DNA from: a virus
Strand: one strand, 5' to 3'
IMG/VR virus record: IMGVR_UViG_3300045201_000011
Coordinates: 1-39,323 of that record
DNA: 39,323 bases
Shown here piece by piece: positions 259 to 39,323 of this stretch. Made by a program: the position numbers and the translations under genes. The notes under the pieces are model-generated. The model saw only the letters and a list, made by a program, of their open reading frames with translations. It ran no database searches and was not told the DNA's origin. Position 1 is the first letter of the stretch. Each line of letters starts with the position of its first letter.

Positions 259-1383
259 TTAAGCGGCGAACTTTTTAATCACGTCTAGCTCTTCCGGCGA
301 GAGGCTGGAAAGCATTTCTTTGAGGGCTTCCAAGCGGCTTGGCTGGGAAGGCTTAGGCTTATTTTCCATACGCTGAATTGCGCCGTCCAGATCATCACTG
401 AACAAGTGAATGTAGCGCTGGGTGACCGTCATAGTTGAGTGACCGGCAAGCTTCTGGATGACTGCCGCGTTCTCTCCCTTGGAAGCGAGACGTGAACAAA
501 ACTCGTGACGCATCACATGAGGAACGAATTGTTTGTCATGTTCCAGACCGAGAGTTTCGGACATGCGGCCCCAGTAGTGTGCAACCTGATTCTTGTTCAA
601 GTTTGGAAACACTTCACGACCGGCCAGCTCATCCCTACGGCGCACCAAGATTGCTTTAGCGCGTTCCGTGAGGGGCACTGTGCGGCTCTTCCCTGACTTG
701 CTGCGCTGACCGGCTGCACCAGCTCCCCAAACCGTCACACGACCATCTTGAGCATCGTCGTGATTAAGCGCTAGGACTTCCCCTTGGCGCATTCCGGTAT
801 CGACCGAGAGAATCACATAGTCCTGCATGTCCTGATGCGAAATTCGCTCAAAGAATGCCAAGACCAGTTTTTCTTCCTTATCGGTGAAGCGTCTAACGCG
901 ATGTTCGCTTTCCTTGTAACGCGCAAATTTAGGCTTGCGGTCAACAATTCCCAGCTCTTCGGCCTCCGTCATTGAACGCGAGAGCGCCGCAATCTTGCGG
1001 TTAACAGTGCCCGGAGCATTTCCATCAGCGAGCAAACGTGCCCTCGCCTTGTCAATGTCAGACTTAGTGAGCTTGGCGATAGGAAGGTTTGAGCCAATGA
1101 TCGAAATGATCGACTGGGCATTAATGAGCTGCTTGTCGCCTGACGGCATCGGTGCCCAGTGAGTATCGTAGACGTACTGCACAAGCTCAGCGAGAGTAAA
1201 CGGCAAATCGCCTTTCCTCTTCACAACGCGCTCACCCATATCGATAGGCTCGCCTTTAATAAGCTTGGTTTGTGTCTCCAGCTCCCACAGACTTGCTTCC
1301 TGCTCATTGGTGAAGCTTCGCCTGTATCTCTTCCCCTTAAAATTGACAGTCCCTTCCCAAGAAGAACCCCTTGGTTTTGCCAT
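259..1383 (-). CDS. int: Tyrosine recombinase / phage integrase
   Basis: 374-aa ORF. Catalytic signature is visible: TGMRQGE (Arg), HVMRHEF (H-x-x-R), GHSTMTVTQRYIH (His...Tyr). Lies next to a tRNA gene. Confidence 0.9.
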   Translation of the reverse strand: MAKPRGSSWEGTVNFKGKRYRRSFTNEQEASLWELETQTKLIKGEPIDMGERVVKRKGDLPFTLAELVQYVYDTHWAPMPSGDKQLINAQSIISIIGSNLPIAKLTKSDIDKARARLLADGNAPGTVNRKIAALSRSMTEAEELGIVDRKPKFARYKESEHRVRRFTDKEEKLVLAFFERISHQDMQDYVILSVDTGMRQGEVLALNHDDAQDGRVTVWGAGAAGQRSKSGKSRTVPLTERAKAILVRRRDELAGREVFPNLNKNQVAHYWGRMSETLGLEHDKQFVPHVMRHEFCSRLASKGENAAVIQKLAGHSTMTVTQRYIHLFSDDLDGAIQRMENKPKPSQPSRLEALKEMLSSLSPEELDVIKKFAA

Positions 1384-1516: not shown

Positions 1517-1993
1517 TCAAACTGGCGATGTTTTCCCGCGTGTAGTCTTAGGTGCTTCGGATGCTGCCGCTGCTGCTTCCTCATGCATTCGCTCAATCTC
1601 AAGGCGAGCATCTGTTTCTTTATCGATTGAATAATCAGGATTGATTGTCCGCATCAGCTTCGTGATGAACGCCTTCCCCTCAGCGGTGAGAAAAACGAGA
1701 CGGCGTCGAGGTTCCCTAGGGTCAATAACCGCTTCCATAAGGTTTAACCCCGGCTTGCCCAAGCGGTGATATTTACTCATCGCCTGAACATTTCGAGAGA
1801 TTGACGATTGCGACAAGCCCGTGAGCTTTGACAGTTCATTCATCGTCAATCCCGGCTTACTGACAACACAGAGCAGAATATCTGCTTGCTGTATTGGCAT
1901 ATCAGGAGAGAGCTTGCGTAGAAGTCGAATAGCGTTCGCCATGACGAAAGTTACATCGTCACTTTTCCCTACCAAAAGTTCGCGCTTATCCAT
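1517..1993 (-). CDS. MarR-type winged-helix transcriptional regulator (candidate prophage repressor)
   Basis: ORF track gives 1517..2050. Start trimmed to ATG 1993 (MDKRELLV...) with GGAG 9 nt upstream. wHTH core LTMNELSKLTGLSQSSISRNVQAM...RRRLVFLTAEGKAF. The stop codon abuts the tRNA 3' end. Confidence 0.65.
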   Translation of the reverse strand: MDKRELLVGKSDDVTFVMANAIRLLRKLSPDMPIQQADILLCVVSKPGLTMNELSKLTGLSQSSISRNVQAMSKYHRLGKPGLNLMEAVIDPREPRRRLVFLTAEGKAFITKLMRTINPDYSIDKETDARLEIERMHEEAAAAASEAPKTTRGKTSPV

Positions 1994-2035
1994 GTTTACT
2001 CCATCTATTCGCCTATGAGGAATTTCCCACAGGTG

Positions 2036-2064
2036 GATATATGGCCGCAAGAAGGTAATGTCTA
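2036..2064 (-). promoter_or_regulatory. Sigma70-like promoter candidate for the MarR-type gene (TAGACA-N17-TATATC), overlapping a GTGGATA-box
   Basis: Minus strand reads TAGACA (2064-2059), a 17-nt spacer, then TATATC (2041-2036) followed by CACCTGTGG. Confidence 0.3.
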
Positions 2065-2431: not shown

Positions 2432-2659
2432 CTAGTTCGCGCCCGTCCCGTAACCGTTGCGCGAGTGGATTGATTTGGGCACAAAATTCCCGGCCTGCCG
2501 CTCGCTTTCTGCAAACGGAAGTTGGGGAACCTCGTGCCCTTGTATGTGACCAGTCATCCTGTCCCGATAAAACACTAACGTTCGGGATTTCCGGTAACGT
2601 GTCCGAAGTTTCTCGAACCGCCCACTTTCTATTAACGGATTATTTGCTTTTGTTCCCAT
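2432..2659 (-). CDS. Hypothetical basic protein (weak call)
   Basis: 75-aa ORF with an ATG start. Competes with a plus-strand ORF at 2470..2739. No recognisable motif. Confidence 0.3.
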   Translation of the reverse strand: MGTKANNPLIESGRFEKLRTRYRKSRTLVFYRDRMTGHIQGHEVPQLPFAESERQAGNFVPKSIHSRNGYGTGAN

Positions 2660-2874
2660 TCTGTTCCACTCTTATCCACAGGAAATATGACAGTGATAAA
2701 CTGAAAACGTGGAAGCCCACGCTTATCAGCATGAATTGAGAAAAACTCATAACGTCAACATTTCCAATGAGTTACGATAAGCGAGGAATGCTTCCTCTGC
2801 ACAAACCAAAGGGCAGTTTGAGCGCCACCATGTCAGGAAACATGTCTGTTTCATCTGTTGAACTCCATCTTGCG

Positions 2875-2935
2875 CTGATCATCAGGCCACGGGCGCGACC
2901 CCATGGCGACCAAAGCAAAAACCTTGGTTTCACAG
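2875..2935 (-). ncRNA. Hammerhead ribozyme motif, type II, copy HH1 (stem II has a U-U at 10.1/11.1)
   Basis: Minus strand reads CUGU GAA ACCAAGG-UUUUUG-CUUUGGU C GCCAUGGG-GUCGCG-CCCGUGGC CUGAUGA UCAG. The core CUGAUGA, GAA, A15.1-U16.1 and GUC are all present. Confidence 0.55.
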
Positions 2936-2959
2936 TTGATTTTAATGGGTTTTCTTTCC

Positions 2960-2988
2960 TTGTCCGCTCAGTGATATGGGATTATGTT
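2960..2988 (+). promoter_or_regulatory. Sigma70-like promoter candidate for the plus-strand gene (TTGTCC-N17-TATGTT)
   Basis: TTGTCC at 2960-2965, a 17-nt spacer, TATGTT at 2983-2988, about 30 nt upstream of the AAGGA RBS and ATG 3021. Confidence 0.3.
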
Positions 2989-3020
2989 CCCACTGTCCGC
3001 TTACGCTAAGGAATTACGTC

Positions 3021-3299
3021 ATGAACCGAATCGAAGATGAGCTATGCTTCCGGGTAGACCAGTGGACGGATGATGGAAGCAGGATTGATTCCGTTCTATC
3101 GCTCTCAATGAATGCGCTGATTGCACAGGGGGCATTTTATGAGGCCGTTAAACTCCGTCCTCACAAGCGCTTGACCATGCGGCATAAGTCGCGAGTGATT
3201 AATGAGCATGTTCCTGAACGACTACGCTTAATAGACATTGAGAAACGCGCCGAGCTGGAGCGGATGATTGCGGAAGCAAAGAACGCCCGCAAGAAATAG
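3021..3299 (+). CDS. Hypothetical protein; the only plus-strand protein gene in the genome
   Basis: ORF track gives 2976..3299. Start trimmed to ATG 3021 (MNRIEDELCF...) with AAGGA 8 nt upstream. 92 aa. Confidence 0.55.
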   Translation: MNRIEDELCFRVDQWTDDGSRIDSVLSLSMNALIAQGAFYEAVKLRPHKRLTMRHKSRVINEHVPERLRLIDIEKRAELERMIAEAKNARKK

Positions 3300-3300
3300 C

Positions 3301-3358
3301 TGCTCATCAGGCCAAAGGCGCAACCCCATGGCGACCGGAGAAAGCCCCCGGTTTCGCA
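3301..3358 (-). ncRNA. Hammerhead ribozyme motif, type II, copy HH2
   Basis: Minus strand reads UGC GAA ACCGG-GGGCUUUCU-CCGGU C GCCAUGGG-GUUGCG-CCUUUGGC CUGAUGA GCA. Predicted cleavage is after C at 3333. Confidence 0.75.
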
Positions 3359-3380
3359 TTGTTCTGCATATGTGGATTAG

Positions 3381-4022
3381 TTAGTGCGAAAAAATTGCAA
3401 CGCCTGAGGGAACATCAATCACATTGTAATCGTGTTTAATGTCGCGGGCGTATGCTTCATAATCGAAATAATCGATTAGAAACTGGGGAATCTTGCCGTC
3501 TGATGAGTGGCAAGACATTTGTTCGTCTGCTGCATTATCTGCATACTCCCGGAAGCTCTCAGAGATGCAAATGAATTGGTTCTCCATAGCGTCCGAGGCG
3601 TCCTTGAGATTACCGAAGTCCTTGATGATCGCCTCTAAGTCTTCCGAGTCGTGGCTGTCATGCTCTTCTAGGAACTCGACATAATCAGCAATTGCTTGCA
3701 GGCCGGGATATTCCCCGAAGGTTGACGGCATGTCGTCATAATCATGAACTGCATATTCTTCCGCGCTCGCTACCCTACCAGAACCGATGCATTCGGGACA
3801 TTCGCAAAGTCTCGTGTCACCTGTTTCGCTGTTATGGTGAGTGACTTTACCCTCACCTTCACAACGGACACATTTCACGGTCACGTTAGGAAACTTGCTT
3901 TCTCTGAGCATGGCGTTGACTTCATCCTGCATTTCATCAACGTCACTAGATGCTTCAACCCAGCGGCCATGCAGAACGCCGTTGTTATAAGATGCGAGAC
4001 AGGCAACGTAAAACCGAGCCAT
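3381..4022 (-). CDS. ardA: ArdA-family anti-restriction protein with an inserted double CxxCxGxG zinc-finger segment
   Basis: 213 aa. N-terminus MARFYVACLASYNNGVLHGRWVEA and ...EEYAVHDYDD..., a very acidic body and C-terminal YFDYEAYARDIKHDY fit my memory of ArdA. The insert is CVRCEGEGKV...CPECIGSGRV. Confidence 0.7.
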   Translation of the reverse strand: MARFYVACLASYNNGVLHGRWVEASSDVDEMQDEVNAMLRESKFPNVTVKCVRCEGEGKVTHHNSETGDTRLCECPECIGSGRVASAEEYAVHDYDDMPSTFGEYPGLQAIADYVEFLEEHDSHDSEDLEAIIKDFGNLKDASDAMENQFICISESFREYADNAADEQMSCHSSDGKIPQFLIDYFDYEAYARDIKHDYNVIDVPSGVAIFSH

Positions 4023-4126
4023 GATTAACCCCTTTGCGCTTGAAAATATATGTGATGAGGATTAATTGTGGGGAAGCCTCCGGCCTTATGACCGGAAGCC
4101 CCCTTGCGCTAGAGGGTTAAGAAAAG

Positions 4127-4157
4127 GGTCACAGTGATCGAGACTGTGGCCTTTTTT
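4127..4157. terminator. Bidirectional intrinsic-terminator-like hairpin between HH3 and ardA
   Basis: GGTCACAGT-gatcgag-ACTGTGGCC followed by TTTTTT on the plus strand and preceded by GAAAAG (CUUUUC after the stem on the minus strand). Confidence 0.5.
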
Positions 4158-4239
4158 CGTTTCCAGCGAAGGGTGATTGACCATGTGAACATGTCAAACT
4201 CCCCACAATATGCCCCTGTAACGTCGAGGCGTTCCGCGC

Positions 4240-4301
4240 TTGCTCATCAGGTTCTAGCCGCGACACTAGAACGACCAGAGGGAAGCCCCCCGGTTTCGCA
4301 A
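4240..4301 (-). ncRNA. Hammerhead ribozyme motif, type II, copy HH3
   Basis: Minus strand reads UUGC GAA ACCGGGGGG-CUU-CCCUCUGGU C GUUCUAG-UGUCGCGG-CUAGAAC CUGAUGA GCAA. Predicted cleavage is after C at 4273. Confidence 0.75.
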
Positions 4302-4322
4302 TGGTATGCATTGGTGGATTGA

Positions 4323-4502
4323 TTAAGCCGTTTGAAGCTTGCCGGTCAGTGCCAGCGAGTGAAAGAGATTATGAGCGCCGTTGATATTGGCCTCAGTGGG
4401 TGACCGTTCTGCCTTATCACATGCAGCATTGTAGGCATCGGCTTGTTGTTTGGTGAAAACATAACCAGTGAATGCCCTGTAACCTTCCGCGATGCGTTCC
4501 AT
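4323..4502 (-). CDS. Hypothetical 59-aa protein (below the ORF-track cutoff)
   Basis: Hand translation: MERIAEGYRAFTGYVFTKQQADAYNAACDKAERSPTEANINGAHNLFHSLALTGKLQTA. Its ATG overlaps the upstream stop (TAATG), which suggests translational coupling. Confidence 0.5.
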   Translation of the reverse strand: MERIAEGYRAFTGYVFTKQQADAYNAACDKAERSPTEANINGAHNLFHSLALTGKLQTA

Positions 4503-4753
4503 TAAATCAGACCTTCCAGTTCGTTTAGAATTTCGTTTATTGAGGGTGCATCCTGTGGTTTCGCTTTGCGGACAATTAAGCCAGCCTTACGCAACTGAGC
4601 GAGAACGCTAGGAACTTGAGGCGATAAGAACGCCACTAGACCATTTGCATCAGCTTTCGCCATGGTACGCCATGCCTCTTCCCCGGCTTCCGTTTCGGGA
4701 TAGAACCGCGTCCACAATCCATCATGACAGGCGTATGTTAGATCGGCTTGCAT
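4502..4753 (-). CDS. Hypothetical protein (83 aa)
   Basis: ORF track gives 4502..4756 (GTG). ATG at 4753. Coupled to the upstream small ORF (TGAGTGATG) and to the downstream ORF. Confidence 0.55.
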   Translation of the reverse strand: MQADLTYACHDGLWTRFYPETEAGEEAWRTMAKADANGLVAFLSPQVPSVLAQLRKAGLIVRKAKPQDAPSINEILNELEGLI

Positions 4754-4756
4754 CAC

Positions 4757-4846
4757 TCAGCCTTCCATTACGATTATTGAGATGAGCATAATCAGGCAGA
4801 TGAAACCGCCCATTGAGGCGAAAGCTAATGCTTCATTGAATGTCAT
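4757..4846 (-). CDS. Small hydrophobic peptide (29 aa)
   Basis: Hand translation: MTFNEALAFASMGGFICLIMLISIIVMEG. AAGGGA RBS 7 nt upstream. The stop abuts the next start. Confidence 0.4.
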   Translation of the reverse strand: MTFNEALAFASMGGFICLIMLISIIVMEG

Positions 4847-4860
4847 TTTGTTTCCCTTGG

Positions 4861-4910
4861 TTAGCGTTTAGGATGCTCCACAGTTCCCCGTGAAGGCACC
4901 TAAGGGCTAA
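4861..4910 (-). repeat. Structured 50-nt repeat, copy A (hairpin with GGAA tetraloop on the minus strand)
   Basis: 46/50 identical to 5105-5154. Minus strand reads CUUCACGG-GGAA-CUGUGGAG, flanked by UUAGG...CCUAA. Confidence 0.7.
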
Positions 4911-5087
4911 TCAGTAACCGGCCCACGTTCTCAGCGATGCAAAGTCCCCATCCCATGTGCCTGTAGTTTCACAGTGTTTTCCGTCTGCATTTGTGTAAGC
5001 ATCCTTGACTGTGATTGTGCCGTCCGCGTTATCGCTAATGAACCAATCATGTTGAGCGGCCCATGCGATTTGCTTCGTGTTCAACAT
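4911..5087 (-). CDS. Hypothetical 58-aa protein (below the ORF-track cutoff)
   Basis: Hand translation: MLNTKQIAWAAQHDWFISDNADGTITVKDAYTNADGKHCETTGTWDGDFASLRTWAGY. GAGGA RBS 7 nt upstream. Confidence 0.55.
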   Translation of the reverse strand: MLNTKQIAWAAQHDWFISDNADGTITVKDAYTNADGKHCETTGTWDGDFASLRTWAGY

Positions 5088-5104
5088 TCCGTTTTCCTCA
5101 TCAG

Positions 5105-5154
5105 TTAGCGTTTAGGATGCTTCACGGTTTCCCATGAAGGCACCTAAGGGCTAA
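5105..5154 (-). repeat. Structured 50-nt repeat, copy B (hairpin with GAAA tetraloop on the minus strand)
   Basis: Minus strand reads CUUCAUGG-GAAA-CCGUGAAG, flanked by UUAGG...CCUAA. Sits directly upstream of the RBS of ORF 4911..5087. Confidence 0.7.
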
Positions 5155-5945
5155 GCCCTAACCTGCATTGATATGCAGTAGTGGATAGAATGTAGTCCTA
5201 TTCAATTGTCAAAGAACTCAGAGGCTTAGCCCCTGCCCTTCCCGGCGTTTGCCGTTCGGTGATTTGGTTTATATCCACTAGTGCATAGATACGCAATAGC
5301 GAAAATGAAAAAATAGACACGCTATCCATCTTTTTTGGATAAGTGCCTGAATTTATTGAAAAGGAAATGCCACAAGCCCGCCACATGGGAACATGAAGAC
5401 GGCTAATGTTAGCGCCTTGAGGTGGCTTGAGGGCGACCAGTGGCGGCATGAGGTGGCGAAAAGGGCAGACGTGGAGACACTGAGACACGCACAGAAAGCC
5501 ACAAGCCTGCCCGCCTGCATTGCATCGGAAGCACTAGCGGAAGCCTTGAGCCTGCCCCCCGGTGATGCTCAGTCTCTTTGAAGTCCAGCAAATGCAGGGC
5601 TTACGGGAAACGTGTGGCGGATTTAGTGGCAAACGTGTGTGCCCGCGAGCCTTTACCGCGCACAGTGAGCGCCTGCTCGTGCCTTTCACCGCGCCCCCAC
5701 GGGGGGTACGCGCGCTGCCCCTCTATCGATTGCCGCCTCGGATTTTTTCGGGGAAATAGCCGCTACCCTTAGGGCATCACAAAGCATCCCTCAGGTTGAC
5801 TCAGGGAAGCTCGTGGGAAGCGGAGAAGCTCTAGGGTGAAGGAATGTAATAGGTGAACCTCAAGGCTCTCTGTGAGTCTCTGAGGCTGATTGTAGGTATT
5901 GACTTTCCCTACGAAGGCGTAAGCCTGAGAAGGGAAAGGGCGATC
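5155..5945. other. Long non-coding, short-repeat-dense region (candidate genome-end / concatemer-junction and early control region)
   Basis: No convincing ORF. Short direct repeats: GCCACAAGCC(C/T)GCC x2, GAGGTGGC x2, AACGTGTG x2, CCTTT(A/C)ACCGCGC x2, GGGAAGC x2. GC hairpin CCCCCACGGGGG. Confidence 0.5.
5184..5212 (-). promoter_or_regulatory. Candidate host-type early promoter (TTGACA-N17-TCTATC), overlapping a GTGGATA-box
   Basis: Minus strand has a perfect TTGACA (5212-5207), a 17-nt spacer and TCTATC (5189-5184). It faces the early small ORFs and ardA. Confidence 0.4.
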
Positions 5946-6281
5946 TCATTTTCTGCAAGGAAACAGGTTCGAACTAGCAACTTGAATTGCCAACGTAACA
6001 TTGTCGCCACTTCGATTTTTCAACCAAGAAACAGCTTTGATAATCTTGTCGTACGAGGTCTGTGAACGTCCTAAAGCAGGAGGCGGGCAACCAACAAGGC
6101 TAGGCGAAGCGGTATCCAGCACACCGTCAATATATCCCCAGCATCGATCTGTTGAGGCGTTACTCTCGAATTTACAAATGGAAAGGAACTCACCAATCTT
6201 CATCTTGGCGTAAGCGGGGTTAGCAGGAATGGCTAACACGATGGAGACTGATAGGAGAAGGCTTGAAACTAAGCGAGACAA
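5946..6281 (-). CDS. Secreted/periplasmic protein resembling Rap1a/Tai-type T6SS amidase immunity proteins
   Basis: 111 aa with a TTG start (AAGG upstream). Signal peptide MSRLVSSLLLSVSIVLAIPANPAYA. Mature part has the remembered family pattern: GEFLSIC...C-W-GYIDGVLD...GCPP...WL...LFPC. Confidence 0.5.
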   Translation of the reverse strand: MSRLVSSLLLSVSIVLAIPANPAYAKMKIGEFLSICKFESNASTDRCWGYIDGVLDTASPSLVGCPPPALGRSQTSYDKIIKAVSWLKNRSGDNVTLAIQVASSNLFPCRK

Positions 6282-39196: not shown

Positions 39197-39323
39197 AAGT
39201 GGGTAACTATGCATTAGTGGATAGATTAAAGCTGTAAGAAAAGGCCGGAGATTTACCATCCCGGCAACGTGGTAACTTCAATCTATTCACTAGTGGAAAT
39301 GTCGATGACGGTCTTTTAAGTCC
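39197..39323. repeat. Right copy of the exact 127-bp end duplication
   Basis: Identical to 1-127. Indicates a circularly closed assembly or terminal redundancy. Confidence 0.95.

Follow-up and report, generated by a model that had tools for sequence, protein, structure and literature searches.

The question raised by this locus is whether a short RNA motif in front of an anti-restriction gene of a phage genome is a genuine self-cleaving ribozyme and, if so, which part of the transcript it serves. The window, i.e., the whole stretch of DNA analysed (39,323 nt; IMG/VR record IMGVR_UViG_3300045201_000011, JGI metagenome contig Ga0485444_00566), bears the motif, HH3, on the minus strand at 4234..4301, where a covariance-model match, the minimum free energy (MFE) fold, and covariation in seven orthologues all point to a type II hammerhead. 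The reading that we prefer, with a probability of roughly 0.7, is that HH3 is a functional type II hammerhead that processes and insulates an early polycistronic ardA message.

Read on the minus strand from 4301 to 4240, the motif has the sequence UUGC/GAA/ACCGGGGGG-CUU-CCCUCUGGU/C/GUUCUAG-UGUCGCGG-CUAGAAC/CUGAUGA/GCAA, which is identical to the string given in the original prediction. The order of its elements (5′ strand of stem II, GAA, hairpin III, C17, hairpin I, CUGAUGA, 3′ strand of stem II) is that of the type II permutation. Stem II comprises four base pairs between 4301-4298 and 4243-4240, with G10.1-C11.1 represented by G4243-C4298. G12A13A14 occupies 4297-4295, and the 9-bp stem III hairpin (4294-4274) is closed by A15.1-U16.1 (A4294-U4274). 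These are followed by C17 (C4273), after which cleavage is predicted, by the stem I hairpin at 4272-4251 (8 bp, i.e., 7 plus a U.G, with G1.1-C2.1 being G4272-C4251), and by the CUGAUGA box at 4250-4244. All positions of the hammerhead core definition are present (C3 U4 G5 A6 N7 G8 A9, G12 A13 A14, A15.1-U16.1, and H17), and Watson-Crick pairs of the three helices flank the core at 10.1-11.1, 1.1-2.1, and 15.1-16.1. The core, the GUC site, and the flanking pairs agree with what Perreault et al. 2011 (PMC3088659) required for acceptance. Stem III had been described as reaching 9 bp only with wobbles, hence as pointing to RNA of this strand, and it indeed contains two G.U pairs (G4291.U4277 and G4289.U4279); as these would be C-A mismatches on the opposite strand, the structure belongs to minus-strand RNA. 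The minus strand is the coding strand for essentially all genes of the window.

For the 77-nt segment 4305..4229, the MFE prediction reproduces the three-way junction of HH3, with an unremarkable folding energy (z = -0.86). When the MFE is computed for a 146-nt context, stems I and III are kept and the 4-bp stem II is lost to competing pairing, which is expected for a motif whose active fold needs tertiary contacts. A search with the Rfam covariance models had been proposed as a check, and its outcome agrees with the prediction: RF02276 (Hammerhead_II) matches minus 4301..4234 at 43.4 bits, above the curated gathering score of 37 and on the predicted strand, with an E-value of 9.3e-6 for the whole window against all 4227 Rfam families. 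The alignment flags zero non-canonical pairs and shows no core mismatch to the consensus, while the Rfam models find no type III hammerhead in the window. A strict type II descriptor (core present, a minimum of 6 bp in stems I and III and of 3 bp in stem II) has HH3 as its sole match in the window and yields none in 200 dinucleotide-preserving shuffles.

The original prediction had treated the 4-bp stem II as a caveat, which proves unfounded, since stem II measures 2-5 bp across 95 distinct type II hammerheads from viral contigs (2 bp in 30, 3 bp in 49, 4 bp in 14, and 5 bp in two). Moreover, a hammerhead with a single-pair stem II has been characterised by Perreault et al. (PMC3088659). According to the same work, most type II hammerheads pair loop I, over at least 4 bp, with the nucleotides just 3′ of stem II (Perreault 2011, PMC3088659). 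HH3 offers a candidate pseudoknot of this kind with five pairs, U4263.G4234, C4262-G4235, G4261-C4236, C4260-G4237, and G4259-C4238. At the family level, the loop I/tail signal is real: in the 95 hammerheads, pairing of a loop I with its own tail averages 4.37 bp, versus 3.60 ± 0.08 bp for mismatched combinations (maximum 3.86 in 500 permutations). For HH3 itself, a 5-bp pairing is also reached by 26% of shuffled tails, and its register is shifted relative to the orthologues. It is thus plausible that a loop I/3′-tail pseudoknot extends the functional element to 4234.

Orthologues were gathered by means of a conserved element downstream and not through the hammerhead itself. A type II hammerhead occupies the same position in seven loci (the window, L071, L064, L061, L051, L104, and L086). 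In an alignment of five orthologues over the full structure, 97% of the cells are paired and seven pairs are compensatory; none of 500 shuffles matches any of the measures, and at most 54% of the cells are paired when the partners are slid. With all seven orthologues, for which stem III was included only in its alignable outer part beside stems I and II, 95.5% of the cells are paired and eight of 16 pairs are compensatory (0/500 shuffles). In stem I, pair 1.1-2.1 changes from G-C to A-U or C-G and UAG/CUA changes to AUG/CAU, while position 10.3-11.3 of stem II appears as U-A, A-U, G-C, and G-U. Such covariation shows that the pairing of the RNA is under selection, so that HH3 cannot be read as purely a DNA-level or protein-coding feature. 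With a complete core, a score above the gathering threshold, and compensatory changes in all three stems, the proposed type II identity stands: by motif, score, covariation, and orthology, HH3 is a genuine type II hammerhead self-cleaving RNA, with its cleavage being predicted.

The genome that carries HH3 is that of a temperate T7-like phage closest to Rhizobium phages. Positions 1-127 of the window are identical to 39197-39323 (127 nt), so the assembly is a circle of some 39,196 bp; what lies near one end is therefore present at the other as well, e.g., a box at 12-26 considered below. The terminase is of the T7 type and 71% identical to that of Rhizobium phage RHEph01, and in the A. tumefaciens C58 locus (L071), the single-subunit RNA polymerase finds a match of 73.5% identity. 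The genome also has genes for an integrase, a MarR-like regulator, and a tRNA-Leu. Phages of this temperate, T7-like kind are known for Agrobacterium, Rhizobium, Pelagibacter, and Pseudomonas (LUZ100) (PMC10134795). Along the coding strand come terminase, terminator, phage promoter, a Rap1a-like gene, about 0.8 kb of non-coding DNA, small ORFs, and HH3, after which follow a leader, ardA, HH2, a 425-nt cassette, HH1, orf101, marR, tRNA-Leu (on the opposite strand), and the integrase; the RNA polymerase gene comes after the integrase, across the circular junction. In the linear genome of RHEph01, the module homologous to the HH3 region lies within 1 kb of the left genome end, so the HH3 region is an early region, as had been proposed.

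Several further features of this part of the genome deserve mention. The complete tRNA-Leu (anticodon TAA; plus strand, 1430-1516) lies between marR (2050..1517) and the integrase gene (1383..259). A tRNA-Leu upstream of the integrase is also found in L061, L064, L071, RHEph01, and Pasto, and one by the integrase has been reported for LUZ100 and pelagiphages as well; it is likely a remnant of an attP/integration site. At 5946..6281 (minus), a 111-aa product resembling a secreted protein or lipoprotein has a weak Pfam match to Rap1a (type VI secretion immunity), and its gene, which has the terminase terminator and a phage promoter before it, has the appearance of a moron gene. A 63-nt direct repeat (minus 5166..5104 and 4922..4860, 87% identical) stands just upstream of a small early ORF in each case; within it, an 8-bp hairpin, CUUCAUGG-GAAA-CCGUGAAG, whose second copy differs in a compensatory manner, precedes CAUCCUAAACGCUAAC, and the repeat may represent a repeated 5′-UTR or processing module. 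A megablast search with 2500-5200 gave no match among phages.

HH3 is one of three hammerheads in the window, in an arrangement published in 2011. HH2 (minus 3294..3359) lies directly 3′ of ardA, scores 45.7 bits with RF02276, resembles HH2 of A. tumefaciens, and is predicted to cleave after C3333. HH1 (minus 2869..2935; predicted cleavage after C2908) has a CUGAUGAU variant at stem II and scores 37.3 bits (gathering score 37), while its A. tumefaciens counterpart, named HH3 there, reaches only 32.2 bits. The latter is nevertheless active according to Perreault et al. (PMC3088659). Within the window, the three share 62-84% identity over 45 nt; all are on the minus strand with spacings of 940 and 425 nt, and they bracket ardA and a cassette, with marR, tRNA-Leu, and the integrase downstream. 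The window thus fits the pattern of clustered prophage hammerheads of Perreault 2011 (Fig. 3/S2).

The first of the bracketed units contains ardA (minus 3381..4022), between HH3 and HH2. It encodes a 213-aa anti-restriction protein (PF07275 ArdA, E 9e-32; PHROG 2059, anti-restriction), and the predicted HH3-HH2 product has 940 nt (4272..3333). Residues ~42-88 of this ArdA form a Cys-rich insertion (CVRCEGEGK...CECPECIGSG) in an otherwise standard ArdA domain, with a weak Anti-TRAP/zinc-ribbon-like Pfam match (E 1.6e-4); a search of genome contigs with ArdA as the query found distant Firmicutes ArdA genes only. The second unit, between HH2 and HH1 (3332..2908, 425 nt), is interrupted by stops in each of the three sense frames. 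On the opposite (plus) strand (3021..3299), there is an ORF of 92 aa, which JGI also called, so that a ribozyme-bounded 425-nt RNA would run antisense to this ORF. The cassette shows no relation to those found in the same place in A. tumefaciens (a 105-aa forward ORF) and L061 (two ORFs).

Upstream of HH3 lies an early ORF of 59 aa (minus 4323..4502; in the ORF list and called by JGI, no family match), whose TAA stop (4325-4323) is 21 nt ahead of the 5′ strand of stem II. Between this stop and the ribozyme, at minus 4305..4319, there is a ATCCACCAATGCATA box. The pseudo-palindromic sequence (TAATCT)ATCCACTAATGCATA has 14 matches in the window versus 0.67 expected, and about eight copies of the box lie on the minus strand, at 39222 (=26), 36086, 29494, 20803, 5286, 5186, 4319, and 3377, with a weaker one at 39298 (=102). 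The box mostly starts 3-7 nt past a stop codon, and the copy at 3377..3363 precedes HH2. It is located upstream of the hammerhead in four of the seven orthologues and occurs in L071, L061, L064, and L086, while it is absent from RHEph01. It may be a candidate operator of the MarR-like repressor, an idea that has been proposed for temperate T7-like phages. The box, as ATCCAC-N3-TGCATA, has also been considered as a promoter of the phage RNA polymerase that would place the ribozyme at +9. This was rejected, since the genome has a separate promoter, AATTACCCCTCACCATAG, and the box is missing upstream of three of the seven orthologous hammerheads.

Seven T3-like copies of AATTACCCCTCACCATAG are present on the coding strand (38786, 38746, 36057, 34683, 32512, 25266, and 6404), and presumably serve as promoters of the phage RNA polymerase. 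The sequence closely resembles the T3 promoter, AATTAACCCTCACTAAAG, and RHEph01 has its own variant, ATTACCCCTCCCTTAAG. None of the seven copies adjoins a hammerhead, and these promoters lie elsewhere than the HH3 early region. Among them, the 6404 copy comes after the terminase terminator and is directed at the early region.

The original prediction had placed HH3 between the 59-aa ORF and ardA. The order is correct, but a structured leader with a 27-codon ORF intervenes before ardA. Alignments of relatives define this conserved element of about 160 nt at minus 4071..4230, directly 3′ of HH3. It begins with a hairpin, P1 (4230-4226/4216-4212; 5 bp, loop GACGUUACA), whose loop is invariant across the loci as GACGAWACA. 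The Shine–Dalgarno (SD) sequence GGGAG (4203-4199) is paired with a downstream CUUCC, and the ORF (MFTWSITLRWKRKKATVSITVTLFLTL) runs from ATG at 4192 to TAG at 4109. Further parts are a start-codon hairpin, a 12-bp helix, and two covarying hairpins; a P4 hairpin and an internal hairpin at 4148-4130, which covaries, also belong to the leader. The internal hairpin, with CCCUUUUCUU after it, has been considered as an intrinsic terminator between HH3 and ardA and rejected, as the U-tract is not kept in the relatives and the hairpin covaries within the leader. RNAalifold applied to seven loci gives 49 pairs with 95% of the cells paired and 15 compensatory pairs; none of 500 shuffles matches this pairing, and at most 56% is reached with the partners slid. 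In three relatives, the BLAST-aligned portions of the leader are 79-85% identical at the DNA level, and several leader-bearing relatives otherwise share almost no early-region DNA similarity with the window. Rfam contains no match to the leader, and neither Pfam nor PHROG contains a match to the 27-codon peptide.

Ten complete modules have been collected, namely window 4230..4071, L071 7486-7661, L064 3949-3772, L061 8957-9132, L051 266-439, L002 4003-4176, L001 823-995, L156 1908-2080, L086 2594-2420, and L104 9456-9631. A loose leader pattern run on viral contigs gave mostly chance matches, from which an nhmmer filter kept L156, L086, and L104, and a metagenome scan returned only two partial loci comprising the 3′ half without the ORF and without a hammerhead. 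All ten modules keep the 27-codon ORF intact, apart from one in-frame insertion; its codon statistics are ambiguous (94 synonymous versus 235 non-synonymous differences; 14, 7, and 14 variable columns at codon positions 1, 2, and 3). A type II hammerhead is situated ~30-65 nt 5′ of the module in seven of the ten loci; in two others, a type III-like hammerhead below the threshold is located 100-150 nt upstream, and the remaining locus is without any. More generally, sub-threshold type III-like motifs (24-35 bits; gathering score 48.5) occur in relatives, situated in the early region and upstream of either the type II copies or the leader (L001/L091 658-715 and 2544-2605, L061 8381-8438, L064 4610-4553, and L156 1750-1807), so that the hammerhead arrays of the relatives may mix hammerhead types. 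The new element is this association, seen in seven of the ten loci, of a hammerhead with a leader immediately 3′ of it that is conserved, covaries, and includes a 27-codon ORF. It is conceivable, though on balance rather doubtful, that hammerhead and leader are one composite unit, in which a ribozyme-trimmed leader or small RNA controls the first early (anti-defence) expression burst in temperate T7-like rhizobiophages; such an RNA, if real, would be previously undescribed.

The leader also gives rise to an alternative view of what an active ribozyme is for: it might serve the structured RNA or its 27-codon ORF, and not ardA, with cleavage making the 5′ end of the ~160-nt element, which could be a translation-controlling leader, a small RNA, or an anti-defence decoy. 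The frequent presence of a type II hammerhead 5′ of the module (seven of ten loci, with type III-like motifs in two more) agrees with this, as do the strong covariation of the module, its SD/anti-SD helix, and the fact that the module is kept where the downstream gene is not ardA (RHEph01 and RHph_I20). Yet in RHph_I20, L089, and L090, the module or its core is present while no hammerhead can be detected, no such module is found downstream of HH2 or HH1, and the element has no evident small-RNA 3′ end, there being no U-tract after P4. All in all, we regard this view as unlikely. The role of the hammerheads might instead be sought in the borders of exchangeable cassettes, either as DNA repeats for recombination or as paired ribozymes that excise or circularise RNA. 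The resemblance among the three copies (62-84% over 45 nt) and the variable contents of the cassette (in A. tumefaciens a forward ORF of 105 aa, in L061 two ORFs, and in the window only an ORF on the opposite strand) would fit, but the covariation testifies to selection on RNA pairing and not on DNA identity alone, and Perreault et al. sought spliced or circular products and found none (PMC3088659), which makes such a role very improbable.

The least probable proposal, with hardly any weight left to it, is that HH3 is not a working ribozyme at all but a decayed relic, a chance match, or part of a 60-aa ORF (4311..4129). Although this ORF does span HH3 and the thermodynamic z-scores are unremarkable, the core is intact, no shuffle matches, the E-value is 9e-6, and indels of 1-3 nt in the stem III loop between orthologues would break the reading frame. 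As a gene, the 60-aa ORF was rejected in its own right: its matches in relatives are fragmentary, go along with conservation of the DNA, and lie over the 27-codon ORF in a different frame, and the Pfam and PHROG protein families contain no match to it.

Processing and insulation of the early ardA message by HH3 thus remains the preferred reading, and the course of events can be outlined on the basis of established hammerhead chemistry and the A. tumefaciens experiments. The early polycistronic RNA would fold co-transcriptionally into the HH3 junction, probably aided by the candidate 5-bp pseudoknot, and would cleave itself after C4273. The upstream RNA (orf58 to orf59) would then end in the stem III hairpin with a 2′,3′-cyclic phosphate, while the downstream RNA would begin with a 5′-OH at the base of the stem I hairpin. 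HH3 together with HH2, cutting after C3333, would release a 940-nt RNA with the leader and ardA, and HH1 (C2908) would separate the 425-nt cassette RNA from the marR-integrase RNA, so that four products are expected: the upstream small-ORF RNA, the 940-nt leader-ardA RNA, the 425-nt cassette RNA, and the marR-integrase RNA. The HH3 cut would also let the leader fold independently of upstream sequence. Terminal hairpins, a 5′-OH, and a cyclic phosphate make poor substrates for 5′-end-dependent RNase E/J and for 3′ exonucleases; with ends protected in this way, the ardA message would gain in stability and become separate from its neighbours. Such a stabilising and insulating role, independent of the host, is likely by analogy with what is generally known of RNA decay and with RNase III processing in T7. 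Processing of polycistronic mRNA has been suggested, without proof, as a role of bacterial hammerheads (2019 review, PMC6765202). Pasto has an early ardA with no hammerhead at the gathering score, and RHEph01 has only sub-threshold hammerhead-like matches, which speaks against an essential role.

As a ribozyme, HH3 is one more well-supported example, since a cleaving hammerhead before ardA in an Agrobacterium T7-like prophage was published in 2011. The triple-hammerhead arrangement is now placed in a complete temperate T7-like phage genome, in its left-end early region. The question of what bacterial and phage hammerheads are for, whose biological purpose was left unestablished by Perreault et al. 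(PMC3088659), thereby gains a concrete form that can be tested, i.e., a self-contained substitute for RNase III combined with insulation of an anti-restriction message. The tie to an undescribed structured leader is the feature of the locus that most merits further study.

The closest known system is the group of three hammerheads in A. tumefaciens C58 that flanks ardA and a further gene (Perreault et al. 2011, PLoS Comput Biol 7:e1002031; PMC3088659). The context given in Figure S2 of that paper includes a phage tail gene, ardA, marR, and an integrase, and RNAs of the triple locus cleaved both during in vitro transcription and in E. coli (PMC3088659). L071 is this published locus: nine of the 11 primers in Table S1 of Perreault et al. 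match it exactly and match no other locus. It is collinear with the window over 4323 to 3299 and again over marR and the integrase, and the order hammerhead, leader, ardA, hammerhead, cassette, hammerhead, marR, tRNA-Leu, integrase is common to the window and the C58 prophage. HH3 of the window corresponds to HH1 of C58, being of the same type II and having a small ORF before it and the leader and ardA after it. The two are 68% identical over 73 columns, with an identical core, GUCGCG loop I, and AGCG tail; stem II has 4 bp in HH3 and 3 bp in C58 HH1, and stem I differs by compensatory substitutions. The C17-to-C17 distance is 940 nt both in the window (4273 to 3333) and in L071 (7414 to 8354), which is probably a coincidence, given an ArdA identity of 54% and lengths of 213 versus 196 aa. 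Unlike the prophage, the window represents a complete ~39.2-kb metagenome phage, with an ArdA only 54% identical; it is without ~34 nt found in C58 between the ribozyme and leader P1, and its second cassette is unrelated. Cleavage has been shown for the C58 ribozymes, and by analogy with these, HH3 of the window would be expected to cleave as well.

Compared with the RF02276 class as a whole, HH3 has the same core, open stem II, closed stems I and III, and prophage/integrase neighbourhood, along with a candidate for the loop I/3′-tail pseudoknot of the class. Nothing essential differs; stem III is long (9 bp, with a class mode of 6), and the candidate pseudoknot is CG-rich, UCGCG:CGCGG versus the consensus UGGC:GCCA.

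A functional parallel is provided by the early transcript of T7, in which RNase III sites flank gene 0.3 (ocr) (Dunn and Studier). In both cases, an early polycistronic RNA from the left end would be cut on both sides of an anti-restriction gene, leaving hairpins at the new ends. In contrast to T7, the cut in the window would be made by the RNA itself and not by a host enzyme, and the predicted ends are a 5′-OH and a 2′,3′-cyclic phosphate instead of a 5′-phosphate and a 3′-OH; the proposed likeness is one of function and not of homology. Finally, the locus recalls RiboJ, a synthetic ribozyme insulator derived from a satellite-RNA hammerhead. In both, a 5′ leader is set apart from the upstream sequence by a hammerhead, which would allow independent folding of leader and ribosome-binding site, but the arrangement in the window, from which we infer an insulating role, is a natural one.
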